DNA of 64,000 nt from an uncultured Candidatus Actinomarina sp. (lineage in GTDB: Bacteria > Actinomycetota > Acidimicrobiia > Actinomarinales > Actinomarinaceae). This document shows, one piece after another, positions 6,659 to 57,006 of the stretch; positions within the stretch are counted from its first letter, which is position 1; each line of letters starts with the position of its first letter. The position numbers were made by a program, and so were the translations under genes. Under the pieces are notes generated by a model. It did not search any database. It saw only the letters and a list, made by a program, of their open reading frames with translations, and was not told the origin of the DNA. The stretch is taken from NCBI GenBank assembly GCA_902565645.1, contig CACFFJ010000002.1, positions 39,105 to 103,104 on the forward strand. The letters are read 5' to 3'.

Positions 6659-7328
6659 AAACTCTAGTTGCGCCTTCTACTCCTTCGAAAATAGATATTA
6701 TTTTTTTGGATTCTTCTTCAAAGCTTGAAGTAACGTTTTCGGGAGATCTAATATTAAAGGCTCTGTTCTTAAAATCAATTTCTACAGGAACGTACGGTAT
6801 GTTTAGTTCCTTGGCTAAATAATAAAACCCACTTCTAAATTTAGGAACGAGTTCAGTTCCAGCTTCAGGTGCTATCAATAAAAGATAATTGTCCATTGTA
6901 GAAAATTTCTCAATTGCTGCTTTTATGGTTCCTCTTGAATTGACCCTGTACACAGGAACTCCGCCAAGTCTAATTAATATTATTTTTTGTAGCCAACCTA
7001 AGGGCCATGGAATTCCCAGTTTGTCTAAATTTTTAGAGAAAGTTATAAGGCTAGGTAGTCTTGTAAATATCCAGCTTGCTCCATAAAAGGTTACCTTAAG
7101 ATCAAGTGCGAGAACTGCCAATAATCCGTACCATGCATCCCTCATTGCTGAATGGGGAGCTCCAATAAGAACCATTTTGCTTAAATTAGGTATTTCTCCT
7201 GTAATATCCCATTTAAATATTTTTAATAGGAATCTACTTAGGGGTCCTAAAATTATTCTTTTCTTTTGTGGAATTTTTTCTGGTACTTTAATCATTTTGT
7301 ACAATATAACTAGCAATCTGAACAGCAT
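6642..7328 (-). CDS. lysophospholipid acyltransferase (PlsC-like) family protein
   Basis: H-x4-D motif (HSAMRD) followed downstream by APEAGTE (the AP-EGT-R block of glycerolipid acyltransferases). Confidence 0.5.
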   Translation of the reverse strand: MLFRLLVILYKMIKVPEKIPQKKRIILGPLSRFLLKIFKWDITGEIPNLSKMVLIGAPHSAMRDAWYGLLAVLALDLKVTFYGASWIFTRLPSLITFSKNLDKLGIPWPLGWLQKIILIRLGGVPVYRVNSRGTIKAAIEKFSTMDNYLLLIAPEAGTELVPKFRSGFYYLAKELNIPYVPVEIDFKNRAFNIRSPENVTSSFEEESKKIISIFEGVEGATRVFTMSE

Positions 7329-9495: not shown

Positions 9496-9543
9496 TCTAA
9501 TGAACTTATTAAAGATTTAACAGACCTAGTACTCTAGTTTGTA

Positions 9544-18497: not shown

Positions 18498-18540
18498 GAA
18501 GCATGATAAATTTGATGCTTACTTTTAATTATTTAGAAAG

Positions 18541-18614
18541 CGCGCCCGGAGGGAGTCGAACCCCCAACCTTCTGATCCGTAGTCAGATGCTCTATCCAGT
18601 TAAGCTACAGGCGC
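18541..18614 (-). tRNA. tRNA-Arg (anticodon ACG)
   Basis: The reverse complement folds as a cloverleaf: acceptor gcgcctg/cgggcgc, anticodon loop cuACGga, T-arm GGTTCGACTCC. No encoded CCA. Confidence 0.8.
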
Positions 18615-18615
18615 T

Positions 18616-18707
<92 letters not shown>

Positions 18708-18714
18708 AAGTTTG

Positions 18715-18800
18715 CGGAGGGAGTGGGATTCGAACCCACGGTATGGAATACATACAATAGTTTTCAAGACTATCGCCTTCGTCCGCTCGGCCATCCCTCC
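18715..18800 (-). tRNA. tRNA-Ser (anticodon TGA)
   Basis: The reverse complement starts GGAGGGATGGCCGAGCGG. The anticodon loop is cuUGAaa (reads UCA, so not tRNA-Sec) with a long variable arm. Confidence 0.75.
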
Positions 18801-18820
18801 TAAAAGGTTTTATTCTTTTG

Positions 18821-18909
18821 CGGAGGGAGAGGGATTCGAACCCTCGAAGGGGATAAACCCTTACACGCTTTCCAAGCGTGCGCACTAGGCCAGACTATGC
18901 GATCCCTCC
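18821..18909 (-). tRNA. tRNA-Ser (anticodon GGA)
   Basis: The reverse complement starts GGAGGGATCGCATAGTCTGG. The anticodon loop is uuGGAaa with a long variable arm and T-arm GGTTCGAATCC. Confidence 0.75.
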
Positions 18910-26340: not shown

Positions 26341-26360
26341 ACAAATAGAATACCTTATCG

Positions 26361-26433
26361 TGGAGATGATGGGACTTGAACCCACGACCCCCTGCTTGCA
26401 AAGCAGGTGCTCTTCCAACTGAGCTACATCCCC
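26361..26433 (-). tRNA. tRNA-Ala (anticodon TGC)
   Basis: The reverse complement is GGGGATGTAGCTCAGTTGG...anticodon loop uuUGCaa...GGTTCAAGTCCCATCATCTCCA. Confidence 0.8.
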
Positions 26434-26522
26434 TCGCTTTTTATATTATGCCCTGTTTCTTAGTGTAAATGAAAAAATTTTAGAAATATTTCAATTTCTT
26501 TACTAATGTATATATGACGAAA

Positions 26523-26597
26523 GGGCCTATAGCTCAGCCTGGTTAGAGCGCATCCCTGATAAGGATGAGGTCGTTAGTTCAAATCTAACTAGGCCCA
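26523..26597 (+). tRNA. tRNA-Ile (anticodon GAT)
   Basis: GGGCCTATAGCTCAGCCTGGTTAGAGC...anticodon loop cuGAUaa...GGTTCAAATCTAACTAGGCCCA, followed by a T-run. Confidence 0.8.
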
Positions 26598-26602
26598 CTT
26601 TT

Positions 26603-39744: not shown

Positions 39745-40245
39745 TTAATGCTCTCTAGATCTGGATGATTTTGTTAATGTTTTTTCTAATTTCCCATTCT
39801 GGAATATAAATGATTCAATTCCTTGAACTAAATGTTTCCCTTGTTGAGACTTTTGTGAAATAACCTGTAAAAGCATGCCTTCAAAGGGTGATATGAGGGT
39901 TATTGAATGTTGCTTAAAGTGCTTTGATGATTGATCTCTTCTAATAACGTCACTTATCATATGTTGAGATTCCCATGACCAGTCTTCGTCTACAACTACA
40001 AACTTGCAAACATGTTTAGTCTGCGATTTATCTATTCTTGCTCCCGGACAAACAACCAAAGACCCTTCAACCCAGGGGTTTAGACCAACTCCATCAAGCT
40101 TTGGGAAGCCAATATTAAATGCAGAATCTATAACTTCGTCAGTATCTCCTTTTTCTAGATTTCTTTTTTTTATTATTTCAGATATAGAGTTTTGAATATC
40201 AAATAACTCTTCGTCTTTCAAGTCTTCTAGTTCTGTTTTGTCCAT
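39745..40245 (-). CDS. hypothetical protein
   Basis: 166-aa ORF, acidic N-terminus, no recognised motif. Confidence 0.3.
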   Translation of the reverse strand: MDKTELEDLKDEELFDIQNSISEIIKKRNLEKGDTDEVIDSAFNIGFPKLDGVGLNPWVEGSLVVCPGARIDKSQTKHVCKFVVVDEDWSWESQHMISDVIRRDQSSKHFKQHSITLISPFEGMLLQVISQKSQQGKHLVQGIESFIFQNGKLEKTLTKSSRSREH

Positions 40246-40284: not shown

Positions 40285-40653
40285 TTAATCATCTAAGTTA
40301 TCTAAGGGGTTTTCTGGTTGACATACATCAAATGCAGATTGAACTTCATCTGATGTCCAGTCAACATCAGCATCCCTGAAAGCAAAGAAACCAAACTCTC
40401 CTGGAGTAGGGTCTGGAAAGTCAACCCCCTGTTCTCTCATGCATTGTGAAAATTCTAATGATGCATCAATTAAAGCTGCTTCAACTTCTGGGTCTAAGTC
40501 AAACTGTTCTGGCAAAGCTCTCCTTAGGATGTCCTCACAATTTGTGAAGGCTTCTTCAAAAACTTCTTCATCTTCAATATTAAGATTATTAAATTCGGGG
40601 TTCCCTTCAGAATCGAAAGTTGGGTCAGGAAAATTAATACCCTCTTCCCTCAT
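40285..40653 (-). CDS. small secreted two-Cys-module protein, paralog 1; the N-terminus probably extends upstream to ~40790 with a signal peptide but no canonical start codon
   Basis: Two copies of the module [AS]QCMRE[EQ]G[IV][DN]FPDPT ... C. The upstream in-frame sequence encodes KKIKRITLLLFISFCTIGGEETQGVATIETTTE, a lipoprotein-like signal plus the GVAT motif shared with the paralogs. Confidence 0.45.
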   Translation of the reverse strand: MREEGINFPDPTFDSEGNPEFNNLNIEDEEVFEEAFTNCEDILRRALPEQFDLDPEVEAALIDASLEFSQCMREQGVDFPDPTPGEFGFFAFRDADVDWTSDEVQSAFDVCQPENPLDNLDD

Positions 40654-40802
40654 ACATTGTGCAAATTCAAGTATTCCTTCTTCAAAAGTTAGTTCTTCTT
40701 CTGAAACTGTTATCTCGGTTGTTGTCTCAATAGTTGCGACGCCCTGTGTTTCTTCGCCACCTATTGTGCAAAAACTAATAAACAGTAGTAAAGTAATCCT
40801 TT

Positions 40803-41984
40803 TTATTTTCTTACTGCCTCCGCTGGTTGAATCTTTGATGCTTTTATTGCTGGATACACTCCTGAAAGAGCGCCTATTAGAAGTGCTAATAAAATTGCGC
40901 TTAAAACTTCTAAAGCTGGTATTGAGAAAACAATATTTGTATAGTTTGTATATCCAAGGGTGACTCCAACCCCAAGAAGCACCCCTATAAGACCCCCAGC
41001 CCCTGATAAAAGAATGCTTTCAAGTAAAAACTGGTACCTTATTTCTTTTCTTGTTGCCCCAATGGATCTCCTAACACCAATCTCCATTCTTCTTTCTAGT
41101 ACTGACATAACCATTACGTTCGCTATAGCTACACCTCCAACCAATAAGGCAACGGAGCCGAGTCCTAAAAGTAGATTTGTAAAAGCTACTTCTGCGGCTT
41201 CTTGAGCCTCAAGGGCATCAGAAGGTCTAGAAACACTTACCTGATCAGGATTTTCTGGATTCATTGATGGTGCTAAAACTTCAACAACATCTTCTACATA
41301 TGTTGGGTTGGCTCTTACATAAATTGTGGTTGGTTCTCTATCTACATTAAATAAAGTTTCTGCAACACCATAACCAATAAATACTGATCGATCTAGGTCT
41401 GGGTGAATCTTTAGTTCATCTAAAATTCCAACTACCCCAAACCACTCGTTTTCAATTAATATTTTTGTTGGTTTAGCAAGAGATGTTATTCCAAGTCTAG
41501 AAGCGGTAACGTTTCCTAAAACAGTTACTGGTATGTTGCTTAATCCTTTATCAATGAATCGACCTTCAGTAAGATTTCCTCCAACAACATCTAGTAACTC
41601 TGAGCTTGTTACGACGGTAGATATCCCTCCTCCTTCGAATTCAGATATGAAATCTGTCCGTCTCACCAACAAGTCTGTTTGAGTTGTCGATGTAACTTCT
41701 TCTACTGGACCTATTCTTTCAACCATTCCCAAAACTCCATCTGGCAACTTCTCTTGTGTTCCAAAAAATCCAGCCTGAGGAGATGCCTTAATCAGGTTTG
41801 TCCCAAGTGATTCTAAAGTTGCTAAAAGGTCTGCTCTTCCAGATGCAGAAATTCCTGTCACGGCAACTATTGCAGCTATACCTATTCCAATTCCTATGGA
41901 AGTTAAAGCCGCCCTTCCTCTTCGAGATTTTACTCCATACAGAGCAACAAAAAATAGGTCTTTTTTCTTTAGCTTCTGTTTCAT
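40803..41984 (-). CDS. MacB/FtsX-family ABC transporter permease with large extracytoplasmic domain
   Basis: 393 aa with an N-terminal TM, a ~220-aa periplasmic-type domain and a C-terminal FtsX 3-TM bundle. It is translationally coupled to the upstream ATPase. Confidence 0.8.
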   Translation of the reverse strand: MKQKLKKKDLFFVALYGVKSRRGRAALTSIGIGIGIAAIVAVTGISASGRADLLATLESLGTNLIKASPQAGFFGTQEKLPDGVLGMVERIGPVEEVTSTTQTDLLVRRTDFISEFEGGGISTVVTSSELLDVVGGNLTEGRFIDKGLSNIPVTVLGNVTASRLGITSLAKPTKILIENEWFGVVGILDELKIHPDLDRSVFIGYGVAETLFNVDREPTTIYVRANPTYVEDVVEVLAPSMNPENPDQVSVSRPSDALEAQEAAEVAFTNLLLGLGSVALLVGGVAIANVMVMSVLERRMEIGVRRSIGATRKEIRYQFLLESILLSGAGGLIGVLLGVGVTLGYTNYTNIVFSIPALEVLSAILLALLIGALSGVYPAIKASKIQPAEAVRK

Positions 41985-42665
41985 TTACGCTACAACTCTT
42001 CCATCTACTAATTTCACTACTTTTTTAAATTTTTTTGCGTGGTCTAGATTGTGTGTAATCATAATGATTGTTTTACCTTGCTTATTAAGCTCTTTAAGAA
42101 TGCTTAGAATATTATCTCCTGATTGTTTATCTAGGTTTCCTGTTGGCTCATCTGCTAAAACAAAGGCTGGGTTTTGAACAAGAGCTCTTGCTACAGCTAC
42201 CCTTTGCTGTTCTCCTCCAGATAATTCTTTAGGTAAATGTTCTAGTCTGTCTCCTAGCCCAACATCCTGCAATACCTTTTTTGCCCTCTTTAATCTCTCT
42301 TCTCTTTTGATTCCTTGGTACAACAAACCCTCTGCGACATTTTCCTGAGCTGTTAAACCAGGCAAAAGAAAAAAGCTTTGAAATATAAACCCAATCTTCT
42401 CTCCTCTGAATTTTGAAAGTTCGTTGTCTGACATGACAGAAACGTCCTGTCCTTCAATCTCTATAGCTCCTTCTGTAAGAGAATCCAGTAAGCCAATCAT
42501 ATTTAAAAGCGTTGATTTGCCACTTCCCGACTGTCCAACTATTGAAACTAAATCTCCTTCTTTTATGTCTAGAGAAATGTTATCAACCGCTTTTACCGGT
42601 GGAGGTCCTTCATAAACTTTCGAAATGTTTTTTAAAGATATTACAGTTTTCGCTTTTGTTTTCAT
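41985..42665 (-). CDS. ABC transporter ATP-binding protein (MacB/LolD type)
   Basis: GQSGSGKSTLLN Walker A, LSGGEQQRVAVARAL signature and Walker B DEPTGNLD; 226 aa. Confidence 0.85.
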   Translation of the reverse strand: MKTKAKTVISLKNISKVYEGPPPVKAVDNISLDIKEGDLVSIVGQSGSGKSTLLNMIGLLDSLTEGAIEIEGQDVSVMSDNELSKFRGEKIGFIFQSFFLLPGLTAQENVAEGLLYQGIKREERLKRAKKVLQDVGLGDRLEHLPKELSGGEQQRVAVARALVQNPAFVLADEPTGNLDKQSGDNILSILKELNKQGKTIIMITHNLDHAKKFKKVVKLVDGRVVA

Positions 42666-44236
42666 CTTGGTACAACTACTAGCTGTCCTTCTTTTATGTT
42701 TCCAACTATTTCAACAAACCCGTCTGTAAATACACCTATCTCTACTCCTACGTATGTTGTCTCTATCCCTGATTCGCCCTTAAATATTTGGTCTTCTGGG
42801 TCTCCATTGTAAATTTCTACTGCGTAACCACCCTCAGCAAGAGCAAGCAAGGCATTCACGGGTACATAAAGCACATCTTCTGATACCTCTGTTACAACAA
42901 AGACTTTAACCGGTGCTTGGTCGTATACGTCTATTTCCGCTGAGTTAAGAACATCTAGCTTTACTTGAATAAAGTTTCCAGCTTGTGTCTCCGTTACTAC
43001 TTGATCAATAAATTTAATTACAGTATTAACCCTCTCGTCTGTTGGTAGCTCAACCTCAACTTCTTCACCTAAAGTAACGGTGTCTTGATCCGCTGCTGGA
43101 AGCCAAAATAAAACTTCGACTCCTGTCGACGAAGTGTTGTAAATCTGACCATTTATAGTTATAGCTCCTCCAACTTTATTTATATATGTTCCGACAATCA
43201 ATTCTGTATCGGACGCATAAGCATTTGTAGGACTAAAGGTTTCGGACTTTGCTGCTAGTTCTAAATCTTGTAGCTCTTCTTTAGCTTTTTCTAATTCAGC
43301 CTTTTCATCTACCCCTTCGTTGTATGCCTCAAGTGCATCATCGTATGCTTTTTGGGCTGTTTCTATTGCTAAGGCTTCGGTAGCGTCAATTCCCGATTCC
43401 TTCCCTTCCTCTAGTGCTTTAATTCTCTTCTGTTTTTCAATTGATTGTTCTAGGTCTTCTATCTCAGCGTCTAAAGTTCCAGCCGCTTTTTTTTCTTTTG
43501 TTTCAGGATTAGTTTCGTCTCTTAATAGTGATAATGACTGCTCGGAAGCTTCAATTGATGCATCTGCCGCTTTCCAGGCTGAATTTTCTTCTGTTGCTGC
43601 TTCATTTGCTTCGTCTAATTTTTTCTTTTTATCATTAACCTGAGCCAACGTTACTCCACCTGAAGCAATTGTCTCTTCAATAGCCTCTATCTCTTCCTTC
43701 TTTGCGTTAATAGCTACTTGTTCTGTAGGGGTTATCTCAGATTTTGTTTCAATACCGTAGTCTATGTATAAATTATTTAGCATTTGAGATGTTGTTTCGT
43801 CAAAGTTTTCATCCGGAGTAAACCCATCGTCTGAATATCCAAGGTTGACCAATGCTTCTTCAATTTGTTTAATATCGGGACCATCGTCTGAGTTTAAATC
43901 AAGCGTCCTGTAGAAAGGAATCGAACCTTGTAAGAGGATAACTGGTTTATTGTCAACAGCGTATAATACTTGTCCGAAGTTGATAATTGTTCCTTCTTCT
44001 GGAAGATAAGTTATAACTCCAGTAATTGAAGAATTTAATATCGATTTGTCAACTTGACTAAGTGTTCCACTGTATTCTTCTTTTTTTGATAAATCTCCTT
44101 TTGAAATCTTGACTGTTGTAAGCTCAAGGGTTTTTTCAGAACCCTGAGATGTTGTTTTTTGAGATCCGAAATAGTAGAAAGATGCTCCTGTAAATATAAG
44201 AATAAGTAAAGCAATTAAATTTTTTCTTGATAACAT
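42662..44236 (-). CDS. HlyD-like membrane-fusion/periplasmic adaptor protein with long coiled-coil and putative peptidoglycan-binding-like segment
   Basis: N-terminal TM (LIALLILIFTGASFYYF), a ~150-aa Glu/Ala/Lys-rich coiled coil and a C-terminal beta-rich domain. The segment IKQIEEALVNLGYSDDGFTPDE resembles a PG-binding motif. Confidence 0.6.
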   Translation of the reverse strand: MLSRKNLIALLILIFTGASFYYFGSQKTTSQGSEKTLELTTVKISKGDLSKKEEYSGTLSQVDKSILNSSITGVITYLPEEGTIINFGQVLYAVDNKPVILLQGSIPFYRTLDLNSDDGPDIKQIEEALVNLGYSDDGFTPDENFDETTSQMLNNLYIDYGIETKSEITPTEQVAINAKKEEIEAIEETIASGGVTLAQVNDKKKKLDEANEAATEENSAWKAADASIEASEQSLSLLRDETNPETKEKKAAGTLDAEIEDLEQSIEKQKRIKALEEGKESGIDATEALAIETAQKAYDDALEAYNEGVDEKAELEKAKEELQDLELAAKSETFSPTNAYASDTELIVGTYINKVGGAITINGQIYNTSSTGVEVLFWLPAADQDTVTLGEEVEVELPTDERVNTVIKFIDQVVTETQAGNFIQVKLDVLNSAEIDVYDQAPVKVFVVTEVSEDVLYVPVNALLALAEGGYAVEIYNGDPEDQIFKGESGIETTYVGVEIGVFTDGFVEIVGNIKEGQLVVVPR

Positions 44237-44269
44237 ATTTTTTAATTTTAACCTCTGTTGTTCGGAATG

Positions 44270-44842
44270 CTAAGGGGCTTTTTCAAAAGTATCATTTTCT
44301 TCTTGGCATTCTTGTATATATTCTTTTATATCTTCTCTTTTCCCTCCAACTTCACTTAGGTTTAGTTTTGCGTTGTCTTGTGTTGGGTCGGCGATGTCGA
44401 TTCCCTTTTCTCGTAAGCATTGAGCTAGTTTTAAATTTGAGTCAAAACGTCTTGCCATTTCTTCTGGGTTTTCTGACTGCCTATCTGGCCATAGTTCATT
44501 ATCTTGTATGCACTCTTCTACATCTTTCATTATGGATGACCTCTCTTCTTTCCCTTTGTTTCTTGAAGTCATCTGATCTATTGTTGATTTTAAATCTTCA
44601 ATATCAAACGGTGTTTGTAGATCGTACCCTTTCTCGTTTAAGCAGCTGGTTAAAACAATTGGATAATCTTCTTCTGTAAGAACTTCCTTTTCATTGTCTG
44701 CTGCGCTGTTTTCACTAATTGTTGCTACTCCGATTCCATTATTAGATGAACAAGCTATATAAAGAAAAGAGGTAGTTAATATACAAATCTTTAATTTTTT
44801 CTTATGGATCATTTTCTTCTCTAAGGTCCTCTGGGACTTCAT
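44270..44842 (-). CDS. small secreted two-Cys-module protein (possibly a lipoprotein), paralog 2
   Basis: Signal peptide MIHKKKLKICILTTSFLYIACSS, GIGVATISEN, then two modules (SCLNEKGYDLQTP...EECIQDN; AQCLREKGIDIADPT...QECQEEN). Confidence 0.5.
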   Translation of the reverse strand: MKSQRTLEKKMIHKKKLKICILTTSFLYIACSSNNGIGVATISENSAADNEKEVLTEEDYPIVLTSCLNEKGYDLQTPFDIEDLKSTIDQMTSRNKGKEERSSIMKDVEECIQDNELWPDRQSENPEEMARRFDSNLKLAQCLREKGIDIADPTQDNAKLNLSEVGGKREDIKEYIQECQEENDTFEKAP

Positions 44843-45392
44843 ATCCGTTTTCCGTTATACATTCTCGAACCAGTGCTCTTAGGTCTTTTGCAGAAATTAC
44901 CCCTGTTACAACAAGTGGTGGGAGAGTATCTCTGAGACCAGTTTCACTTGTTGGGTCTGATACGTCTAATCCTTTTTCTCGTAAACATTGTGCTACCTCT
45001 AGCTCTGCGTCTAATATTGCTGCTTGTTGTTCTGGTGTTGCGTTTTCTCTTGCATCAAGCGGTATGTTGTTTTCTTCTGCACATTTTTCAATTATTGAAT
45101 AAAGCTCTTGTTGTTCAGCCTGTGTCATTTGAATAAAAATTGGGGTTAATATTCTTCTCAAGTCTCCTGGTTTTTTTGGGTCTTCAAGCTCATAATTATT
45201 ATCTCTTATACATTGTGCAAGCAATAACTCGGCGTCAACCCAGGAGAGCTCATTTGTATTTACCGTGGTAGTTGTTGATTCCATGTTTTCGAGGGTTGCT
45301 ACCCCAACACCTTCTTCTTTATCGTTATTAAAAAACGAACAAGAAGAAACTAAAAGAAAAACAAAAAAAAGTAAAAGTTTTTTCTTTCTCAT
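44802..45392 (-). CDS. small secreted two-Cys-module protein (possibly a lipoprotein), paralog 3
   Basis: Signal peptide MRKKKLLLFFVFLLVSSCS, GVGVATLEN, then modules AQCIRDNNYELEDP...EKCAEEN and AQCLREKGLDVSDPT...RECITEN. Its 3' end overlaps paralog 2 by 41 nt. Confidence 0.5.
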   Translation of the reverse strand: MRKKKLLLFFVFLLVSSCSFFNNDKEEGVGVATLENMESTTTTVNTNELSWVDAELLLAQCIRDNNYELEDPKKPGDLRRILTPIFIQMTQAEQQELYSIIEKCAEENNIPLDARENATPEQQAAILDAELEVAQCLREKGLDVSDPTSETGLRDTLPPLVVTGVISAKDLRALVRECITENGYEVPEDLREENDP

Positions 45393-47038: not shown

Positions 47039-47947
47039 CTAACTCCCGCTTTGGTAAACAGATATAAAGCCTAAATAGGAGTTTGCAATTTCTTCTACGG
47101 CTTCTTCTCTCGACTTGCTGCCTTCATGCCAACCTTTTAGTGACTCCCAAAATATAGACCTGCCTATTGCAAAACCCTTATATCCATCTACAGAAGAACC
47201 TGCTCTAAGCCACTCATTAACTTTCTCATCGTTTGCACCTCGTCCAAGGACAACCGCGATAACGTCTTCTCTTCCTCCGTTTTTTATTGATTCTGCAATC
47301 TTTTCACAGTCTTCTTTCGTATCAAGACCCTCTATTTTCCATATGTCAGGGTCGGCTCCTCTTTCCCTCATTTCTTCAACAACCTTAACAGCTAGGTTTG
47401 GTCTAATTTCAGCATCATATCTTGCTTGATCTCCATCAACAGTCTCTAACTGTTCCTCGGTTGCGGGAACTAAAAATTCTAATAGAAACTTCTTTTCATT
47501 ATCAATTATCCAGTCAGAAAGAGTTTTTATTCTGCTACCTTGTATTTCTCTAGCTTCTTCTTCATCGTCGGGATTCCACCTAACCAATATTTTGATAAAG
47601 TCTGCACCAACTTCATTTATCTTTTCACCAAAGTCTTCTCCGTATTCAAAATCAAATATACTTTGGCCAGATTTTTCTACTGGTGCAGCAAATTTTATTC
47701 CATTTTCAATTGCTTTTTTTTGAACGTCTATTCCAAATTGCTCATCTACAAGTATTGCTGGGTCACCACCACTAATCCCTTTTTCTTTGGCTGAGAGGAA
47801 TCCTTCAAAAATTATATTTTTCATTTCTGAAACTCTTAAGACCTCTTCTTTTTCTGGTGGTCTTGCTTCTACGCCAAGTAGGCCTTTGGTTAGTGTTCCT
47901 CTGTGGTCAAAGGCTAAAATATATAAATCGTTTGGATAACCCTTCAT
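47039..47947 (-). CDS. class I aldolase of the LacD/DUF2090 (tagatose-1,6-bisphosphate aldolase-like) family
   Basis: ILAFDHRGTL (compare LacD ALAFDQRGAL), FIKILVRW and AIGRSIFWE blocks parallel LacD. It is operonic with pfk, suggesting it acts as a fructose/tagatose-bisphosphate aldolase. Confidence 0.5.
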   Translation of the reverse strand: MKGYPNDLYILAFDHRGTLTKGLLGVEARPPEKEEVLRVSEMKNIIFEGFLSAKEKGISGGDPAILVDEQFGIDVQKKAIENGIKFAAPVEKSGQSIFDFEYGEDFGEKINEVGADFIKILVRWNPDDEEEAREIQGSRIKTLSDWIIDNEKKFLLEFLVPATEEQLETVDGDQARYDAEIRPNLAVKVVEEMRERGADPDIWKIEGLDTKEDCEKIAESIKNGGREDVIAVVLGRGANDEKVNEWLRAGSSVDGYKGFAIGRSIFWESLKGWHEGSKSREEAVEEIANSYLGFISVYQSGS

Positions 47948-48933
47948 AGTTTAATCTTAAGCTTTTTCTTTTCTCTTTGTGTGTAAAATCTTGATACAAC
48001 AAAGACAAGCAACACTAAAAGCACAATAACTTGAGCTAAAAGCGGAATAACTTGATCACTTTGTGTTTTTTGTTCTTGTTCAAAATATTTATCTGAATAA
48101 ATAATTCCTGGATCCTGTTTTGAGTCAATAATTTCGTTTAAAACATTTAACAAATCAACTGTGTTTATACCCCAGTTGTTAGCTAGATTTTCGTCTAAAA
48201 AATATATATTATTACTTTTTACAGCAATTAGGTTTTTCCAAGATGTTCTTGTAGAAAGGTCTTTATTTAAATAGTCAGAATGACCCACAACTATTAAATC
48301 GGGGTTTGATTCTATTATTTTTTCCTCAGAAATTTCTGGATATCCGCTGCTGTATGGATCTTCTAATTCGTTAGCAATGTTTTTAACACCTAATAGGTTG
48401 TATATTTCTCCAATAAATGAGTTTTTATTTACTGTATATATTCCATAGGTGTAACCAATTTCATGAAAAATTTTAATATCTTTAAATTTTGTGTTTTGAA
48501 GAATCGTGCTTACGTCCTCTCTCATGGAAGAGATTAGGTTCTTTGCCTCGTTCTCTTTATGAATTAAATTTCCGATTATTTCAATTTGTGAATATACGTC
48601 TTCAAAGTTCCTTGCAGGAGGAAGTAGTGCATATTTCATTTCCTTCCTTTCTAAATCGGTGACTATTTCATTAATATCAAAAGCTATTAATACTACATCT
48701 GGATTTAGTTCTAAAATTTCATCTGTGGTTGCTGTAAATGCATCTATTTTCTTAACTGTTTCTGGGGTTTGTGAAAAAGAATCAGCACCCACCAGCAGCT
48801 CACCTCCTCCAAGAGCTTGTACAATCTCTGTGTGTGTTGTGGATAGACTAACTATCTTTAACTTATCTACTTTCTCTGAGTTAAGTGAACATGCTGAAAG
48901 AACCAAAGTGAGAAATAATAGCTTCTTTTTCAT
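47944..48933 (-). CDS. BtuF/FepB-type (TroA-fold) ABC substrate-binding lipoprotein, with an additional C-terminal TM anchor
   Basis: Lipoprotein signal MKKKLLFLTLVLSACS (start ATG 48933 with AGGAAA upstream; the track starts at GTG 48951). KIVSLSTTHTEIVQALG ... LVGADSFS is the BtuF-like N-lobe. A cobalamin riboswitch lies upstream. Confidence 0.65.
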   Translation of the reverse strand: MKKKLLFLTLVLSACSLNSEKVDKLKIVSLSTTHTEIVQALGGGELLVGADSFSQTPETVKKIDAFTATTDEILELNPDVVLIAFDINEIVTDLERKEMKYALLPPARNFEDVYSQIEIIGNLIHKENEAKNLISSMREDVSTILQNTKFKDIKIFHEIGYTYGIYTVNKNSFIGEIYNLLGVKNIANELEDPYSSGYPEISEEKIIESNPDLIVVGHSDYLNKDLSTRTSWKNLIAVKSNNIYFLDENLANNWGINTVDLLNVLNEIIDSKQDPGIIYSDKYFEQEQKTQSDQVIPLLAQVIVLLVLLVFVVSRFYTQREKKKLKIKL

Positions 48934-48974
48934 AATTTCCTTTCTCACCACAAGAAGAAAGCTGGGAACCCCAA

Positions 48975-49090
48975 CCCTTCTCTCGAGGTTTGTTGTTTCA
49001 AAAACAAAAAAGTCGACCTGACTTATCTTTCGAATTACAGTTGCGGGACAGTCTCAGATTTTCACTGACTTCGCTTCTTTGCTTTATTCG
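48975..49090 (-). promoter_or_regulatory. cobalamin (B12) riboswitch
   Basis: The minus-strand sequence ...AGUGAAAAUCUGAGACUGUCCCGCAACUGUAAuucgaaagauAAGUCAGGucgac contains the conserved GGUG.AA.UCC...CCCGC..CUGUAA core and the AGUCAGG B12 box, followed by a U-rich terminator-like expression platform. Confidence 0.65.
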
Positions 49091-49109
49091 TTAGAAAAAG
49101 TGTAGCAAA

Positions 49110-49712: not shown

Positions 49713-52175
49713 TTACTCACTTTTTATAGGGATGAAGGCTGAAATCTCTTCTTCTTTAGAGAGCTTCATTATCCTAACTCCTTGTGCTACTCTGCTCATT
49801 TGTTTTATTTGCTTTACTGCACATCTTATAGCAGTTCCTCCTGTACTAACAAGCATAACTTCAGTATCTTCATCAACTGATCTTGCTCCAACTAAATCTC
49901 CCTTTGTTTCGGTAACCTTTAGGGCCTTTACGCCCATTCCACCTCTTCCTGCTTTTCGAAATTCTTCAAGCTTTGTTCTTTTTCCGTAGCCTTTAGCGGT
50001 GATAAACAAAAGTGTTTCTTCTCTTGATGTTGAGGCGCCCACAACTTTGTCCCCTTCTCTAAGCTTTATCCCCCTGACACCCATTGCTGTTCTACCTTGT
50101 GGTTTTAGATTCTTTTCATCAAATCTTATTGCTTGGCCTTTTTTTGAAACAAGAATTACGTCTTCTTTTCCTGATGTGGTTTTTACAGAAACTACTCTGT
50201 CGTCTTCTTTAAGTTTTATTGCTTGTAATGATTTATAGTTTGAATCAAAATCCTTAAAAGCTGATTTTTTAACTGTTCCTTTTTCTGTCATTATTAATAA
50301 AAACTTTTCGGTTTCATAGTCTCTGGTGTCAATTATTGCCTGTATTTTTTCCTCTTGTCCCATAGACAATACGTTGTGTATCAAAGAACCTTTTGCTGTC
50401 CTTGTTGTTTTTGGTAGCTCGTGTGCTTTGGCTCTGTAAACCTTTCCTTGGTCTGTGAAAAACAGCAAGTAAGAATGGACTGATGTTGATAGAAGGTGCT
50501 CTATTACATCCTCATCAGAAGATGCGGCTTTTACTCCCTTGCCTCCTCTTCCTTGTTTTTTGTAAGACGTTGATGGGACAGACTTGACATAACCATTGGA
50601 AGAAACTGAAACAATTATTTCTTCGTCCTCAATAAGATCTTCTATTTTGACCTCTCCAACATCAGGAACAAGCCTAGATCTTCTGTCGTCTCCGAATTTT
50701 TCTGTTATTGCTTCTAGTTCTTCAACTAATATTTTATTTTGTTTTGCTCTGCTTTTAAGTATTGCTGCAAGTTCTTTAATTGTTTCTTTAAGGTCTTTCT
50801 TCTCTTCTTCAAGCTTTTCTCTTTCTAGTGCCGTTAGTCTTCTAAGTGGCATGTCTAAAATATGTGATGCCTGTACCTTAGATAGTTTAAATTTTTTCAT
50901 TAAAGACTTTCTTGCTATGTCAACGTCTTTTGATGCTTTGATTGTCTTTATAATTTGATCAATTTTATTAAGAGCAAGTAAAAGTCCTTCGACAATATGT
51001 AGTCTGTCTTTTGCTTTTTGAAGTCTGTATTTTGTTCGTCTCTGAATAACGTCTATTTGGTGCTTGATGTAATAGCCAATAAGGTCTGGAACAGACAAAA
51101 CCTTGGGCACACCATTAACTAGGGCAACTGAATTCACTGAAAATGAGTCCTGGAGTTGTGTTTGTCTAAACAGCTGATTCAAAACAACTTGTGGTACTGC
51201 GTCTCTTTTTAACTCAATAACAAGTCTTGTACCGTTTCTGTCGCTACTTTCGTTTCTAAGATCAGAAACTCCGGCTAGTTTTTTGTCTTGTACAAGAGAT
51301 GCTATTTTTTCCATTATTCTGTCTATTGATGCTTGATATGGAAGTTCTTTTACAACTATAGCTGACCGTCCTTTTCCAAGTTCTTCAATGTCTGCTACCG
51401 CCCTTAGTTTTATTGACCCCCTACCTTTTAGTATTGCGTCTTTTATTGATGGGGTTTCAACAATCAAACCTCCTGTTGGAAAGTCGGGACCCTTAATTAT
51501 CTTTAAATAATCTCTTGGTTTTGGGTCTTTTGTTTTTAATGAAAATTTAACAGCTTCTGTAATTTCTTTAAGGTTGTATGGGGGCATGTTTGTGGCCATA
51601 GCAACGGCAATCCCTTCGGCTCCATTAATAAGAAGGTTTGGGAACCTGCCGGGAAGAACTTTTGGCTCTGTTGTTTCTCCCGAATAATTTGGTTCAAAAT
51701 CTACTGTTTCTTCGTCTATTCCATCAAGAAGTTGGGATGCTAATAATGACATTCTTGACTCTGTGTATCTCATTGCTGCTGGTGGGTCGTCTGGTGTGCC
51801 AAAGTTACCTTGCGGTTCTATAAGTGGGTATCTTGTGCTAAAGTTTTGACCCAACCTAACAAGGGTTCCATATATTGCATCGTTTCCATGGGGATGATAA
51901 TTACCCATAACGTCCCCAACTACTTTTGAACACTTTCTAAATGGTCCCGTTGGTCTAATTCCTGTCTCATACATTGAGTACAGGATTCTTCTTTGAACTG
52001 GTTTTAAACCGTCTTTAACGTCTGGAAGTGCTCTTGAAACAATTACTGACATTGCATAGTCTAGAAATGACTTTGATATTTCCTCTTCTACGGGAATTGC
52101 TCCGTTTGCTGCTGGTTTCTTTGCTGCTGGTTTCTTTGCTGCTGGTTTCTTTGCTGCTGGTTTCTTTGCTGGCAT
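49713..52175 (-). CDS. gyrA: DNA gyrase subunit A with N-terminal (AKKP)n repeat extension
   Basis: [31 protein letters not shown], the catalytic Tyr region and a C-terminal beta-pinwheel; 820 aa. The start ATG overlaps the gyrB stop (TAATG). Confidence 0.95.
52095..52170 (-). repeat. 18-nt coding tandem repeat x4 (AAKKPA) at the gyrA 5' end
   Basis: ctggtttctttgctgctg units repeat directly. Confidence 0.8.
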
Positions 52176-54097
52176 TATACGTCCAAAAACCTTACATCTT
52201 TAGCGTTTTGCTCAATAAATGTTTTTCTTTTTGAAACATCGTTGCCCATAAGAACTTCAAACATCGTTGCAGCCTTTGCTTCAGCTGCTTTACCGTCAGC
52301 AATGCTGACTTGTATAAGGGTCCTGGTTTCTGGGTTCATTGCTGTGTCCCACAATTCTCCAGCGTTCATCTCACCAAGGCCTTTGAACCTGCTTATATCA
52401 AATTTTTTATTTTTGTTTTCTTTCTTAAATTTTTCCAAAGCTTCATCGTCTTTTAGGTAGTTTATGGATCCAGATGATTTTGCTCTGTACAGGGGTGGTT
52501 CTGATATCCAGACCTTTCCCTCTTTTATTAGGCCTGGCATAAATTTGAAAAAGAACGTTAATAAAAGAGTTCTTATGTGGGCGCCATCAACATCAGCGTC
52601 TGTAAGAAGTATTATTTTGTCGTATCTAGATTCTTCCCCGTTGTATTGATTGTTGATACCTGTTCCAATAGCTTTTATTAATGAACTAATTTCTTCGTTT
52701 TGAAGGGCTCTGTTCTCTGTTACTTTTTGAACGTTGATAATTTTTCCACGTATTGGTAAAACTGCTTGTGTTCTAGATTCTCTCGCTTGCTTTGCTGGAC
52801 CAGCTGCTGAATCCCCTTCAACAATTAAAAGCTCGCTCTCGCTTGGGTCTGTCGAGGAACAGTCCGCTAGTTTCCCCGGAAGCCCTGATGTCTCAAGAAT
52901 ACTTTTCCTTTTTGTTAGTTCTCTTGCTTTTTTGGCGCTCATTCTTGCTTTTGCAGCAAGAGCACATCTTTCAACAATTGCTCTTCCTTCTTTTGTGTTT
53001 TTTGATAGCCATTTTGGTAGTTCTTTGTTAACCAAAACCTGAACTTTTGATTTCATTTCTGTGTTTCCTAGCTTTGTTTTGGTTTGACCTTCAAACTGTG
53101 GTTCTTTAACTCTAACTGAAATTACTCCTGTAATTCCCTCCCTTATGTCGTCTCCTGTTAGGGAAATGTCAGAATGTAGATTTCTTGCTTTTGCGAAATC
53201 ATTAATTGCTTTTGTAACTGCTGTTCTCAGGCCTTCTTCATGTGTTCCTCCTTCGAGTGTGTGTATGTTATTAGCAAAGCTTTTTATGTTTACGTCATCT
53301 TCGTTTTTCCATTGAAGTGCTACGTCTATTTCAGAATCTTTACTTTTGTCAGAGAAAGATATTGTTTTGTCGTGTAAAACCTCGAAGCCGTCGTTTAAAT
53401 AATCAACAAAATCAACAAGTCCTCCTTTATAAAGAAACTGGTCTTTTGTTGCTGGTTTCACTCTGTTGTCTGTCAATACAATTTTTAAGCCTTTGTTTAA
53501 AAACGCTGTTTGTCTAAGTCTCTCAGATACGATATTGTGTTCAAATGTTTGTGTTTCATCAAATATTTCAGGATCGGGTAAGAAATTGATTTTTGTTCCT
53601 GTTTTTTTTGTTGCTTTTCCTTTTTTTATTTTTGCTGTTGGTTTTCCGTGGTCAAATTCTTGTTTCCAGAAAAACCCGTCTCTCTGAACCTCTGCTTTTA
53701 CGAAAACTGACAAGGCGTTAACAACAGAGATTCCTACCCCATGTAAACCCCCGCTTACTGTGTAGGCTCCTGATTCGAACTTACCTCCAGCATGAAGTGT
53801 TGTTAGTACTGTTGTTAGGGCTGATTCTTTTGTTTTGGGTCTTGGTTTCACTGGAATGCCACTTCCGTTGTCTGTAACGGTTACGGATCCATTTTTTTCA
53901 AGACGAACCTCTATTGAAGTACACCTTCCAGCCATAGCTTCATCAACAGAGTTATCAACTACTTCCCAAATTAAATGGTGAAGACCGTTTGGCCCTGTAG
54001 ACCCTATGTACATTGCTGGTCTTTTTCGTACCGCCTCTAACCCCTCTAAGACTTTTATGTCTTTGGAGTCATAATTGTTTGAATCTTTTTTTGGCAC
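52175..54097 (-). CDS. gyrB: DNA gyrase subunit B
   Basis: GHKL ATPase motifs (GLHHLIWEVVDNSVDE, DNGSGIP), the TOPRIM region (EGDSAAG, DADVDGAHI); 640 aa. Confidence 0.95.
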   Translation of the reverse strand: MPKKDSNNYDSKDIKVLEGLEAVRKRPAMYIGSTGPNGLHHLIWEVVDNSVDEAMAGRCTSIEVRLEKNGSVTVTDNGSGIPVKPRPKTKESALTTVLTTLHAGGKFESGAYTVSGGLHGVGISVVNALSVFVKAEVQRDGFFWKQEFDHGKPTAKIKKGKATKKTGTKINFLPDPEIFDETQTFEHNIVSERLRQTAFLNKGLKIVLTDNRVKPATKDQFLYKGGLVDFVDYLNDGFEVLHDKTISFSDKSKDSEIDVALQWKNEDDVNIKSFANNIHTLEGGTHEEGLRTAVTKAINDFAKARNLHSDISLTGDDIREGITGVISVRVKEPQFEGQTKTKLGNTEMKSKVQVLVNKELPKWLSKNTKEGRAIVERCALAAKARMSAKKARELTKRKSILETSGLPGKLADCSSTDPSESELLIVEGDSAAGPAKQARESRTQAVLPIRGKIINVQKVTENRALQNEEISSLIKAIGTGINNQYNGEESRYDKIILLTDADVDGAHIRTLLLTFFFKFMPGLIKEGKVWISEPPLYRAKSSGSINYLKDDEALEKFKKENKNKKFDISRFKGLGEMNAGELWDTAMNPETRTLIQVSIADGKAAEAKAATMFEVLMGNDVSKRKTFIEQNAKDVRFLDV

Positions 54098-54173
54098 GGA
54101 TCTCCTAAGATACGTTTCTTTTTTTTGTTTTTTACAGCCCTTGCTGAACTCTCATTTTAGCTGAAATCCGTTG

Positions 54174-54461
54174 TTATTGTTGGTTATTTTCTATTTCAAC
54201 ACGTAGTGATTTAAGCTTTATTTTTGTTTTTTTTTCAATATCTATTAATATTTTTTGTTCTTCGAGCTCAATTATGTTTTTCAATCTTTTTGATTTGGTG
54301 TAAATTGTTGCAACTTTCTTAACAACTGGTCCAGAAACTATTTCTTTCGACCAAACGTCTTTATTTTTATCAAAATAACTTTTTATTTTTTTGGATTCTG
54401 AAAAATTTATTCCTAGAGTGTTCTTTTCTATGTTTATTTTTTCTGGTTCTTTTTTTTTCAA
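54174..54461 (-). CDS. small hypothetical protein at the DUF721/DciA position between dnaN and gyrB
   Basis: 95-aa lysine-rich ORF overlapping the dnaN stop. Positional analogy only; weak sequence resemblance to DUF721. Confidence 0.35.
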   Translation of the reverse strand: MKKKEPEKINIEKNTLGINFSESKKIKSYFDKNKDVWSKEIVSGPVVKKVATIYTKSKRLKNIIELEEQKILIDIEKKTKIKLKSLRVEIENNQQ

Positions 54462-55573
54462 GAATCTGTTCTCACTGGCATTAGGAGATATCTATATGTT
54501 TCTTCTTCGCCTTGTATAATTACTGGTTTCTCGTTTCCTGAAAATCTTATGTAAACTGTTTCTCCGTCTAAAACCTCAATTCCTTGTATTAAATAGTTTG
54601 GGTTGAAAGACATTTCAAACCCGGTAAGGTCGCCTGTTTCTAAACCAAGAACCTTTATTGAGACCTCTTCGTTTCCACCACCAATGTCTTTGTTTATTGT
54701 TGTAATCTTAAGTGTTTCGTTGTTTGTAAGTAACATGTTCACCGGAATAAAACCCTCTGCAACTACGGTTGCTCTGTCTAAAGATTCTAGTATTTCTGTT
54801 TTGTTGACCTCTATACTAAAAAGCGTTTCTTTTGGAAAAAGGTTTTTGTATTCGGGAAAGCTTCCCTCGAGTTTTCTTAGTGATGCTGAAAAATGTTTGT
54901 TGTGTAGGTGTAGTTCTTTCTCGTTGGAGTTGATTTTTATCGGTTCCTCGTTGTTTTCAAAAAGTTTTATTGTTTCATTTAAGGCTCTAAACGAAAGTGT
55001 CCCTATGTTGTTTATTGGTATTTCAGATATTGTGTTTGTGGCTAGTCTGTAGCTGTCTGTTGCAGCTAGTTCTGTTTTTTTGTTTTGGTTGTTGAAAAAA
55101 ACTCCTGTTAGTATTGGCCTTCCTCCTTCTGGTGAGGTTGCTATTCCTACTTTCTTTAGTGATTCAAAAAGATCGTCCGTTTCTATTTCTTTTGCGTCCC
55201 CTGTTTCTGTTTCGCTCAACAAAGCTTCTGGGTATGTTTTTTCATCTAGTTTTCTGAGGACAAAGTCGAGTTTTTTTATCTCTACTTTTATCTCACTACC
55301 AATGTCTGAGAAAACAACTTCTCCGTTTGGAAGTTTTCTTACAATCTCAGACAAAACCCTCGCGTTAACAAGGCTTTCTCCTTTCACCTCTACCTCAGCC
55401 ACCGTTCTTGCTTTTAAAACAACATCTAAATCTGATCCTATAACCTCTACTGTTTTTTCGTTTGCTTTTATATAAAGGCCTTGTAGTGCTGGAGTTGTGG
55501 GTCTCGGGTCAACAACCCTCGAAACAGAACCAACAACACTTTTAAGATCTTTTGTTTGTATTTTAAACTTCAA
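54458..55573 (-). CDS. dnaN: DNA polymerase III beta sliding clamp
   Basis: 371 aa, three-domain beta-clamp architecture, MKFKIQTKDLKSVVGSVSRVV N-terminus; immediately downstream of dnaA. Confidence 0.9.
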   Translation of the reverse strand: MKFKIQTKDLKSVVGSVSRVVDPRPTTPALQGLYIKANEKTVEVIGSDLDVVLKARTVAEVEVKGESLVNARVLSEIVRKLPNGEVVFSDIGSEIKVEIKKLDFVLRKLDEKTYPEALLSETETGDAKEIETDDLFESLKKVGIATSPEGGRPILTGVFFNNQNKKTELAATDSYRLATNTISEIPINNIGTLSFRALNETIKLFENNEEPIKINSNEKELHLHNKHFSASLRKLEGSFPEYKNLFPKETLFSIEVNKTEILESLDRATVVAEGFIPVNMLLTNNETLKITTINKDIGGGNEEVSIKVLGLETGDLTGFEMSFNPNYLIQGIEVLDGETVYIRFSGNEKPVIIQGEEETYRYLLMPVRTDS

Positions 55574-55689
55574 AATAATTCCTTATATATTTAATAATAA
55601 TAAAGCTGTTTAAAGTGTTGGAAATTAGAAAAAACCCTTTATTTAAAGAGCCCAGGGTGTTGGAAACTAGAAACATATCGAAACCCTAT

Positions 55690-57006
55690 TCAAGTAAAAC
55701 TAATTGTTTTTAACTTATTGTCGAAAGTGTTGATTTCATTTAAAAACAAAGAAGAAGCAGCGGTTTTCTTCAAACAAGACAAGACAGTAGAGTGAGAACG
55801 ACCACCAAGAAAGAGGCCTATTTGAGAAAGAGAAAGGTCGGTGTGTTTTCTCAACAAAGCAATACACAAATGTCTAGCTCCACTAACAGGAGCACTCCTG
55901 TTTTTAGAAACAACCAATTTTTTATCTACCTGATAAACACCCGAAGCATAATCTAAGATAAAATCAGGTGTTAGGTAGGCTGTTGTATTTTTCTTAGCCT
56001 CCGAAACAAGATTAACGATATACCCCGAGTTACCAACACCGGTTTGTTTGTTTATTACAAGATTGTTCACAATACCATTAATATCTCTAAAACTACTAAC
56101 CTCTACAAGAAGAAGGTCTGAAATTTCTTTTTTTGTTAACAAAACACCACCGTGCTCTTTGTTTTTTTGATTCAACATTGTTTCAAACATTTCTTGGTCT
56201 GGTTTACCTATGTCGGTAACTAAACCGTTTAAAACTCTAGATATTAACCTTTCTGGAAAACCAAGGAGGTTTTGAGGTTTTTGATCAGAGACCAAGACAA
56301 CAGCCTTGTTGTTGTTTAAAAAATAATTAATTGTATGAAACAACTCTTCCGAAACACCCTTCTTTCCGACAAAGAACTGTATGTCATCTATTAACAAAAC
56401 ATCAACAGAGCGAATTTTGTTCTTAAATAAATCAATGTCTTTATTTTTAATTCCGCTTATATAAGACTCTAGAAACGACTCTGAATCTATATAATATGAA
56501 GACCCGGAAGACTCTTCCATTGTTTTTAATAAATGTGTTTTACCGACACCGGGGTCACCATGGACAAAAAGAGGGTTAAACCTTTTTCCAGGTTCGATAA
56601 CAATGTTTTTAGCAGCAGTTACAGCTAAATTATTAGAGACACCAACTAAAAGGTTTTCAAAAACAGAAAGATCTGCGGACTTCTTTTTAGGAGAAAACAC
56701 CTCCTCCTTGTAAACAACTTCATCTTTAACTTCATCCACAAAAGACAAATTTTTATTTACAGATTTATTTTTTTTGTCTAAAACAAAAACACAATCATCA
56801 TAACCACTAACGTCTTTATAAACACTCTTAATTGTTTTAAAAAGCTTCTTTTCTATTGAGCTTTTAACAAAATCAGAATCTACATATAAACTAAGTTCTT
56901 TTCCGTTGTTTGTTCTAAAACTAACCTGGTCCAACCAATATTTATCAGTCTTAGAAAGCGGTTCTTCTAAAATTTTTTCTTTAAAATCTAAAAGCTTTTG
57001 ATTCAC
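55690..57006 (-). CDS. dnaA: chromosomal replication initiator DnaA
   Basis: AAA+ Walker A GDPGVGKTHLL, sensor motifs, C-terminal HTH DNA-binding domain (...RSHSTVLSCLKK); 438 aa. Confidence 0.95.
   Translation of the reverse strand: MNQKLLDFKEKILEEPLSKTDKYWLDQVSFRTNNGKELSLYVDSDFVKSSIEKKLFKTIKSVYKDVSGYDDCVFVLDKKNKSVNKNLSFVDEVKDEVVYKEEVFSPKKKSADLSVFENLLVGVSNNLAVTAAKNIVIEPGKRFNPLFVHGDPGVGKTHLLKTMEESSGSSYYIDSESFLESYISGIKNKDIDLFKNKIRSVDVLLIDDIQFFVGKKGVSEELFHTINYFLNNNKAVVLVSDQKPQNLLGFPERLISRVLNGLVTDIGKPDQEMFETMLNQKNKEHGGVLLTKKEISDLLLVEVSSFRDINGIVNNLVINKQTGVGNSGYIVNLVSEAKKNTTAYLTPDFILDYASGVYQVDKKLVVSKNRSAPVSGARHLCIALLRKHTDLSLSQIGLFLGGRSHSTVLSCLKKTAASSLFLNEINTFDNKLKTISFT

Follow-up and report, generated by a model that had tools for sequence, protein, structure and literature searches.

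The 64-kb stretch of Actinomarina-type DNA analysed here (the window; ~33% G+C) carries on its minus strand a cluster of six genes, which encode an ATP-binding cassette (ABC) exporter, its adaptor and three small paralogous proteins built from a repeated two-cysteine module. All six open reading frames (ORFs) reported by the initial annotation are present on this strand at the coordinates it gave, in the order par3, par2, adaptor, ATPase, permease and par1. The gene par3 (44802..45392) encodes a protein of 196 residues with the lipobox VSSC (Cys18), a GVATLE motif and two modules. The ORF of par2 is open from 44842; the second ATG, at 44812, is the more probable start, giving MIHKKKLKICILTTSFLYIAC and a protein of ~180 residues (44270..44812) with the lipobox YIAC, a GVATIS motif and two modules, because the orthologue in locus L003 begins just after the par3 stop. 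Then follow the genes for the adaptor (42662..44236; 524 residues, membrane-anchored, probably of the periplasmic-adaptor or membrane-fusion-protein type), the ABC ATPase (41985..42665; 226 residues, LolD/MacB/FtsE type) and the permease (40803..41984; 393 residues, MacB/FtsX type, Type VII ABC). The last gene, par1 (40285..40806), comprises 173 codons (IKRITLLLFISFC), starts at ATA and has a GVATIE motif and two modules. Most of the earlier gene starts stand, except those of par2 and of par1, which does not begin near 40790. The adaptor and ATPase genes share an ATGA overlap, the ATPase and permease genes join at TAAATG, and the permease and par1 genes meet at ATAA.

Pairwise comparison of the three small proteins revealed identities of 29-34%, with an invariant set composed of the GVAT stretch, four cysteines and the elements QC.RE.G.D..DPT and C..EN. 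The GVAT stretch, rightly singled out as conserved by the initial annotation, is membrane-proximal and encoded at 40732..40743 in par1, 44720-44731 in par2 and 45294-45305 in par3, all on the minus strand. The six modules, each of ~65 residues with one cysteine pair, could be aligned over 67 columns, in which both cysteines and one proline are invariant. They are encoded on the minus strand at 45057..45260 (A) and 44835..45035 (B) in par3, at 44486..44692 (A) and 44282..44467 (B) in par2, and at 40513..40704 (A) and 40297..40491 (B) in par1. A profile built from the six modules matched par1, par2 and par3 only when searched against the whole window, twice each and with domain E-values of 1e-25 to 1e-29, including 3.8e-29 and 3.8e-28 for the two modules of par3. 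The module is thus real and present twice per protein; the residue pattern first written for it fits four of the six modules well, and departs from degenerate versions in module A of par3 (AQCIRDNNYELEDPKK) and of par2 (TSCLNEKGYDLQTPFD). As the cysteines are strictly paired throughout the family, we infer that each module holds one disulfide.

Structure prediction of single small proteins with AlphaFold2, a check that the initial annotation had suggested, yielded a confident folded part in both cases. The model of par1 has a mean predicted local distance difference test (pLDDT) score of 83.4 with a core mostly above 90, and each module is predicted to consist of a helix, a β-hairpin loop and a second helix. 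In the model of par3 (mean pLDDT 82.9), the loop is helical, residues 51-185 are helical and residues 1-50 are disordered. Both models predict disorder for the first 40-50 residues, GVAT motif included. By sequence, the small proteins are putative lipoproteins: the lipobox of par3 (VSSC) fits, that of par2 (YIAC) is a near-fit, and that of par1 (ISFC) has an atypical Phe at position -1, in a protein without a canonical start. All three proteins in the window are strongly acidic, with a pI of ~4.1 and net charges of -19 to -40.

The initial annotation did not recognize the module as a described domain, and neither sequence nor predicted fold led to one in Pfam, NCBIfam or the Protein Data Bank (PDB). 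Searches against Pfam-A and NCBIfam returned no match for the small proteins of the window, nor for ten diverse family members from high-G+C genomes, and the module and whole-family profiles matched PDB sequences only at lipoprotein signal peptides. Structural similarity search of the predicted models against solved structures using Foldseek gave no significant match (E above 3). Faint matches to COX17 and CHCH (E 0.05-0.1) lie below threshold. Streptomyces members are annotated merely as ‘hypothetical protein’, ‘Lipoprotein’ or ‘Secreted protein’ and have no precomputed Pfam domain. No account of the family or of its gene cassette was found in the literature, in a limited collection where absence is not proof.

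Scoring the module profile against 1.84 billion cluster representatives (clustered at 50% identity) revealed a large family of 2,966 protein clusters at E<=1e-3, 881 of which pass E<=1e-10. The members are nearly all 160-300 residues long with two matched stretches. Among the best 150 representatives, 135 have two C[LMIV][RKN] motifs and 121 have a lipobox-like signal, as judged by a loose regular expression. Exactly four cysteines are present in 133 of the 137 two-module representatives, with a median within-module spacing of 43 and 42 residues. The core reads C-M-R-[DE]-x-G-[IV]-D-x-P-D-P, in which C, R, G, D and P are 96-98% conserved. The counterpart of the GVAT stretch, [G/E/K]-V-A-[S/T]-[L/I] or more loosely V[AV][ST][LIV], lies ~10 residues past the lipobox cysteine in 71 of 121 representatives; in P0166, a transmembrane (TM) anchor, a rare substitute in the family, replaces the lipobox and this motif is still present. 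Behind the motif come a flexible linker, acidic in most members, and the two helix-loop-helix modules. The median net charge of the family is -25 and ~10% of its members are neutral or basic; those of Streptomyces are basic, not acidic, and miss the GVA[ST]L motif. Two apparent variants of this architecture were set aside: the single 359-residue ORF P0274, from another lineage, is two adjacent tandem paralogues read as one, par2-like and then par3-like, and P0177, apparently a fusion of small protein and adaptor, has a junction that looks out of frame and is most likely a frameshifted gene call, so that it was not used as a Rosetta-stone fusion.

Close homologues of the small proteins were found in marine metagenomes, as well as in genomes that bear the names ‘Candidatus Actinomarina’, Actinomarinales or OCS155 cluster; par3 alone has 245, one of them named Ca. 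Actinomarinales. As NCBI taxonomy places Actinomarinales in Actinomycetota, the host is an actinomycete and is taken to be a monoderm. The 2,966 clusters, together with loci from other genera described below, rule out that the module is confined to Actinomarina.

The permease and ATPase resemble known pump components. The permease matches FtsX (PF02687; E=2.4e-20, 73.2 bits against a cut-off of 25.5) and MacB_PCD (PF12704; E=3.3e-16, 60.6 bits against a cut-off of 27), and scores only 41 bits with the lolCE models, against a cut-off of 362. Hydropathy predicts the classical topology, with TM1 at residues 23-49, an outside domain of ~210 residues (50-262) and three C-terminal TMs. The ATPase matches ABC_tran (E=2.5e-35); its best NCBIfam models are LolD (1.2e-69), DarD, MacB (3.6e-68) and FtsE, all scoring below their equivalog cut-offs. 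By these sequence matches, the permease and the adjoining ATPase are assigned to the MacB or Type VII ABC transporters.

The adaptor has an N-terminal TM at residues 6-25 and appears to contain half a lipoyl-like segment and β-barrel and membrane-proximal domains. Direct comparison with Pfam gave a weak match to PG_binding_1 (E=0.006) and none to HlyD, and the match to the CzcB-type model TIGR00999 (E=6.4e-6, 25.5 bits) is far below its cut-off of 319. Its probable identity is drawn from alignment A4, in which it aligns along its length, at 29-35% identity, with high-G+C homologues that pass the thresholds of both PG_binding_1 (E=1.5e-12) and HlyD_3 (E=7e-9, 36.8 bits against a cut-off of 22.2). 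Column-by-column alignment with these homologues places the PG_binding_1-like domain at residues 119-174 (43715..43882, minus strand). Directly behind this peptidoglycan-binding domain lies a Glu/Lys-rich coiled-coil insert of ~155 residues (177-331; 43247..43708, minus strand; A4 columns ~240-395), which is present only in Actinomarina-type adaptors, including those of L006, L008 and L014, and gapped in the other lineages. Near the same point, a Solirubrobacterales homologue contains a charged insert that is unrelated, and the Acidimicrobiia homologue has two peptidoglycan-binding domains (compare L023). By alignment A4, the peptidoglycan-binding domain appears to occupy the position of the MacA-type α-hairpin, and no gene for an outer-membrane factor was found in any locus examined. 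The ‘tripartite-style efflux machine’ of the initial annotation holds as a MacB-type exporter with an adaptor and is overstated beyond that, as there is no outer-membrane component and a peptidoglycan-binding domain appears to sit at the hairpin position.

Linkage of the small-protein gene to the pump genes, as the initial annotation had proposed, was found from either side. In a forward scan, patterns derived from the small proteins only, applied to one genome per species, returned 31 loci, and in all 31, homologues of the adaptor, ATPase and permease genes of the window come directly after the small gene in the same orientation, as far as the contig reaches. These loci belong to Actinomarina, Nonomuraea, Streptosporangium, Streptomyces, Streptoverticillium, Micromonospora, Actinomadura, Kribbella, Actinoplanes, Dactylosporangium and Amycolatopsis, in addition to one Solirubrobacterales and one Acidimicrobiia metagenome-assembled genome (MAG); all 31 are Actinomycetota, and at least ten actinomycete genera are represented. 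In the reverse scan, adaptor-only patterns from the high-G+C adaptor subset returned 80 loci on metagenome contigs, 73 of which have at least 700 nucleotides (nt) upstream; in 72 of these 73, a two-module gene lies directly upstream on the same strand. By gene content, this count makes the small protein a core member of the cassette, whose first gene it almost always is. The two independent tests also reject a coincidental neighbourhood in a compact genome. In the Streptomyces venezuelae locus, the stop codon of the small gene overlaps the start codon of the adaptor gene (9504-9507), which suggests that the two are translationally coupled.

In Streptomyces venezuelae, the cassette is preceded by divergent genes for an OmpR-type response regulator and a HAMP-HisKA-HATPase histidine kinase. 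Outside Actinomarina, 52 loci include at least 3.2 kb upstream; with these two proteins as probes, a divergent regulator and kinase were found in 46 of them, and the other six have the cassette without the pair. None of four Actinomarina loci has the pair, and the window contains no homologue of either protein. Two TMs of the kinase flank a proline-rich outside loop of ~60 residues without a recognizable sensor domain; since this loop is so short and proline-rich, the kinase probably needs a partner to sense. Judged from the distribution of these genes, the ancestral unit is a four-gene cassette with a divergent two-component regulator, which was locally lost in Actinomarina.

Copy number of the small gene differs among the lineages. 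The high-G+C lineages have one copy and the Acidimicrobiia MAG two, and Actinomarina-type loci have two or three upstream of the pump genes in addition to one downstream of the permease gene. Four paralogues, three upstream and one downstream, were found in L006, L007, L009, L012 and L021 (~5490-7220 and 10550-11240 in L006 coordinates). A rough neighbour-joining tree places par1, the downstream copy, among the canonical members and unites par2, par3 and the third upstream type in an Actinomarina-only clade; par1 is also the paralogue nearest to the family consensus. The lineage-specific expansion claimed by the initial annotation is therefore narrowed: the family itself is widespread in Actinomycetota, and only the multiplication to three or four copies is specific to Actinomarina.

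The start of par1 is unusual. Its frame has no ATG, GTG or TTG before 40653, and the signal peptide opens at an ATA codon (40806-40804), which lies 12 codons before the lipobox cysteine and overlaps the TAA of the permease gene. At the same position, 11 orthologous loci (L003, L005, L006, L008, L009, L010, L012, L013, L014, L021 and L027) have ATG (2), ATA (5) or GTA (4), and a positively charged n-region is conserved behind it. Most of them have GGAGG or AGAGG 10 nt upstream, inside conserved permease codons. The protein would be made either by near-cognate re-initiation coupled to termination of the permease, or by a -1 slip on A-AAA-TAA, whose product would be permease and lipoprotein in one chain, a fusion in which the signal peptide, as a fifth TM, would keep the modules outside. 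Simple readthrough of the permease stop was rejected, as the two frames differ by one base.

The six genes had been described as a single operon, which could not be established. A scan for promoters and terminators gave no signal above chance that delimits the cluster, which is embedded in a longer, tightly packed string of co-directional genes. Over the scanned stretch, which begins where the PFK gene ends, downstream of a riboswitch, and takes in the cluster, nothing resembling a terminator was found. This adenosylcobalamin (AdoCbl, B12) riboswitch, at 48967-49099 on the minus strand, scores 53.3 bits against a gathering score of 50 and is the head of the co-directional gene string that continues into par3. 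The gene directly downstream of it encodes a Peripla_BP_2 binding protein (47944-48951) and has no adjacent permease or ATPase gene of the BtuCD type. Directly downstream of par1, a 166-residue ORF (39745-40245, minus strand) is conserved in Actinomarina-type loci (phmmer E down to 1e-103) and has no signal peptide and no Pfam or NCBIfam match.

Further upstream, 7-16 kb from the cluster (49713-57006), the genes dnaA (55690-57006), dnaN (54458-55573), gyrB and gyrA lie on the same strand, and the most A+T-rich part of the window is found at 56-58 kb. Given this gene group and the base composition, the cluster is probably near the replication origin. Elsewhere in the window, four tRNA genes (Arg-ACG, Ser-GCT, Ser-TGA and Ser-GGA; 18540-18909) lie inside the sole G+C-richer stretch (16-20 kb, ~41%), and divergent tRNA-Ala(TGC) and tRNA-Ile(GAT) genes at 26360-26598 are not within any rRNA operon.

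The small proteins are probably either a fourth part of the pump or its cargo. We tentatively propose, at somewhat short of an even chance, that the small protein serves a stress-regulated MacB-type machine as its fourth subunit, conserved and extracytoplasmic. This reading is based on the rule of one gene per cassette, the first-gene position with its stop/start overlap, and the analogy to YknWXYZ, to the partners of Type VII ABC systems and to LanI/LanFEG. Type VII ABC systems in general act by way of an outside partner, EnvC, LolA or TesA for example (PMC12646458). In the proposed mechanism, the small protein would be tethered at the outer face of the membrane and bound to the adaptor or to the outside domain of the permease, where it would capture or present the compound to be removed, or gate the adaptor. 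ATP-driven movements of the permease would then expel the compound from the membrane surface via the wall-fixed adaptor. In the Actinomarina version, the local regulator pair was lost, the adaptor gained its coiled coil, and the small protein diversified into three or four paralogues, which may differ in specificity. Both the contact with the pump and the capture of a substrate are thus predicted rather than seen.

Several points weigh against a subunit role. With three or four divergent copies to one pump, cargo is no worse a fit than a stoichiometric subunit, and the near-invariant CMRxxGxDxPDP core may be purely structural. The basic Streptomyces members without GVA[ST]L leave no single ligand-charge logic for the family, and a substrate is known for no member of the cassette. 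In addition, one adaptor locus (L089; adaptor at 931-1971) has no detectable small gene in the 930 nt upstream; it may be a genuine exception or else hold a highly divergent copy. If the small protein is instead cargo, the main alternative, which we consider possible yet doubtful, the MacB-type permease would, as LolCDE does with lipoproteins or the Aat system with the acylated protein dispersin/CexE, pull the anchored lipoprotein off the membrane and through the wall-anchored adaptor into or beyond the peptidoglycan, with GVA[ST]L as a recognition or shedding site. The predicted compact, small, cysteine-pinned domains on a long flexible tether would suit such a route, as does the multiplicity of divergent paralogues per Actinomarina pump, a pattern typical of substrates, and the conservation of the membrane-proximal motif even in the TM-anchored P0166. 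The sequence V-A-S|L fits the -3/-1 rule of type I signal peptidase. There is precedent in MacB-family substrates of up to ~10 kDa (dispersin) and in the extraction of lipoproteins by LolCDE (PMC5985334), as well as in an acylated lipoprotein trafficked by a composite secretion system (10.1101/2020.09.23.310854). However, it would be unusual for a pump that most lineages keep under a two-component stress-type regulator to serve just one endogenous small protein, and folded domains of ~110-135 residues would be among the largest cargos of the MacB family; the single gene per cassette at the first position looks more like a subunit, and no chaperone or acceptor gene is linked. A more far-reaching idea, which we hold to be unlikely, takes the cassette as a lipoprotein-release machine of monoderm actinomycetes, in which extraction or V-A-S|L-type cleavage would be followed by delivery via the peptidoglycan-anchored adaptor to the wall or medium under envelope-sensing two-component control; Actinomarina would then have a constitutive multi-cargo exporter, with par1 perhaps fused to the permease by the -1 slip at A-AAA-TAA.

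The adjacent kinase raises the question of whether the lipoprotein is its signal-perceiving partner, merely co-regulated with the pump. Lipoprotein/kinase pairs are established in actinomycetes, such as LpqB with MtrB and CseA with CseC, and the frequency of the divergent regulator pair (46 of 52 loci) and the short, proline-rich outside loop of a kinase lacking a folded sensor domain would agree with such a pairing. Nevertheless, the small gene is retained and multiplied in Actinomarina although neither the locus nor the 64-kb window contains a kinase, which argues for a role linked to the pump and not to the kinase; six other loci carry the cassette without the regulator pair, and the small gene adjoins the pump genes in their own orientation, as it does not with the kinase operon. 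We therefore judge a sensor co-factor to be distinctly unlikely. The four invariant cysteines, the acidity of the window paralogues (pI and net charges given above) and the faint COX17 and CHCH matches could also point to a protein that binds metal or acts as a thiol-disulfide centre, next to a pump that exports metal or is unrelated. Yet the cysteines are ~42 residues apart, one on each helix of the module, and form neither CxxC nor CxC, so that a structural disulfide fits better; the COX17 and CHCH matches are far below threshold, roughly one family member in ten is neutral or basic, and no metal-sensing type of regulator is linked. A metal or redox function is accordingly very improbable.

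The subunit proposal and the gene unit behind it are of interest beyond Actinomarina. A six-gene unit composed of a regulator pair, a lipoprotein, a wall-binding adaptor, an ATPase and a permease is widespread in Actinomycetota, and its first structural gene represents a family of at least ~3,000 sequence clusters without a Pfam or NCBIfam model or a solved structure. A family model could re-annotate thousands of hypothetical proteins. The unit bears on the open question of what the adaptor does in monoderm MacB-type systems, on how actinomycetes sense and clear envelope-active compounds, and possibly on lipoprotein release in monoderms. As Streptomyces carries the full unit, it offers a genetically tractable target.

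Among known systems, the four-component YknWXYZ of Bacillus protects against the SDP toxin, and its YknW belongs to the Yip1 family. Like the present cassette, it comes from a monoderm and has the same order of accessory protein, adaptor, ATPase and MacB-type permease; the YknX adaptor binds peptidoglycan, and YknW, the product of the first gene, may influence the state of the adaptor, although its role is called enigmatic (PMC5985334). As described there, YknW is a co-transcribed membrane protein (PMC5985334), which sets it apart from the two-module, cysteine-pinned lipoprotein without a Pfam or NCBIfam family found here. Compared to YknWXYZ as described, the adaptor here has a PG_binding_1 domain and a divergent two-component regulator is part of the unit. 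The SpMacAB system of Streptococcus pneumoniae (Spr0693-0695) and AS-48EFGH of Enterococcus likewise combine a MacB-type permease with a separate ATPase and a membrane-anchored adaptor in cells that have no outer membrane, and were proposed to clear peptides or antibiotics off the membrane surface (PMC5985334). No lipoprotein partner is described for them in that paper, whereas the two-module lipoprotein gene accompanies the pump genes in 72 of 73 and in 31 of 31 loci here.

LanFEG is not known to have a MacB/FtsX-type permease or an adaptor. Its cooperation with LanI is nevertheless a likeness, namely a surface lipoprotein that works with an ABC exporter, there for producer immunity (PMC4828448). 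Unlike in LanI/LanFEG, no biosynthetic cluster is linked to the present cassette. LolCDE and Aat share the Type VII ABC permease, and both have acylated proteins as substrates, which they take from the cytoplasmic membrane at its outer face (PMC5985334; 10.1101/2020.09.23.310854). Both are diderm systems with LolA/LolB or an outer-membrane channel, whereas the loci here have a peptidoglycan-binding adaptor and no chaperone or channel gene; as judged by gene content, and by Pfam where available, none has a LolA-like gene. The overall design resembles the sense-and-remove modules of other monoderms, an analogy drawn from the divergent regulator pair, with its sensor-domain-free kinase, that adjoins the cassette. 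Altogether, the pump itself is of a familiar and ordinary type, a MacB-type ABC exporter with an adaptor in a monoderm; what appears to be new, with no earlier description found in the limited literature, is the small-protein family and the fixed six-gene unit in which it stands next to a peptidoglycan-binding adaptor.

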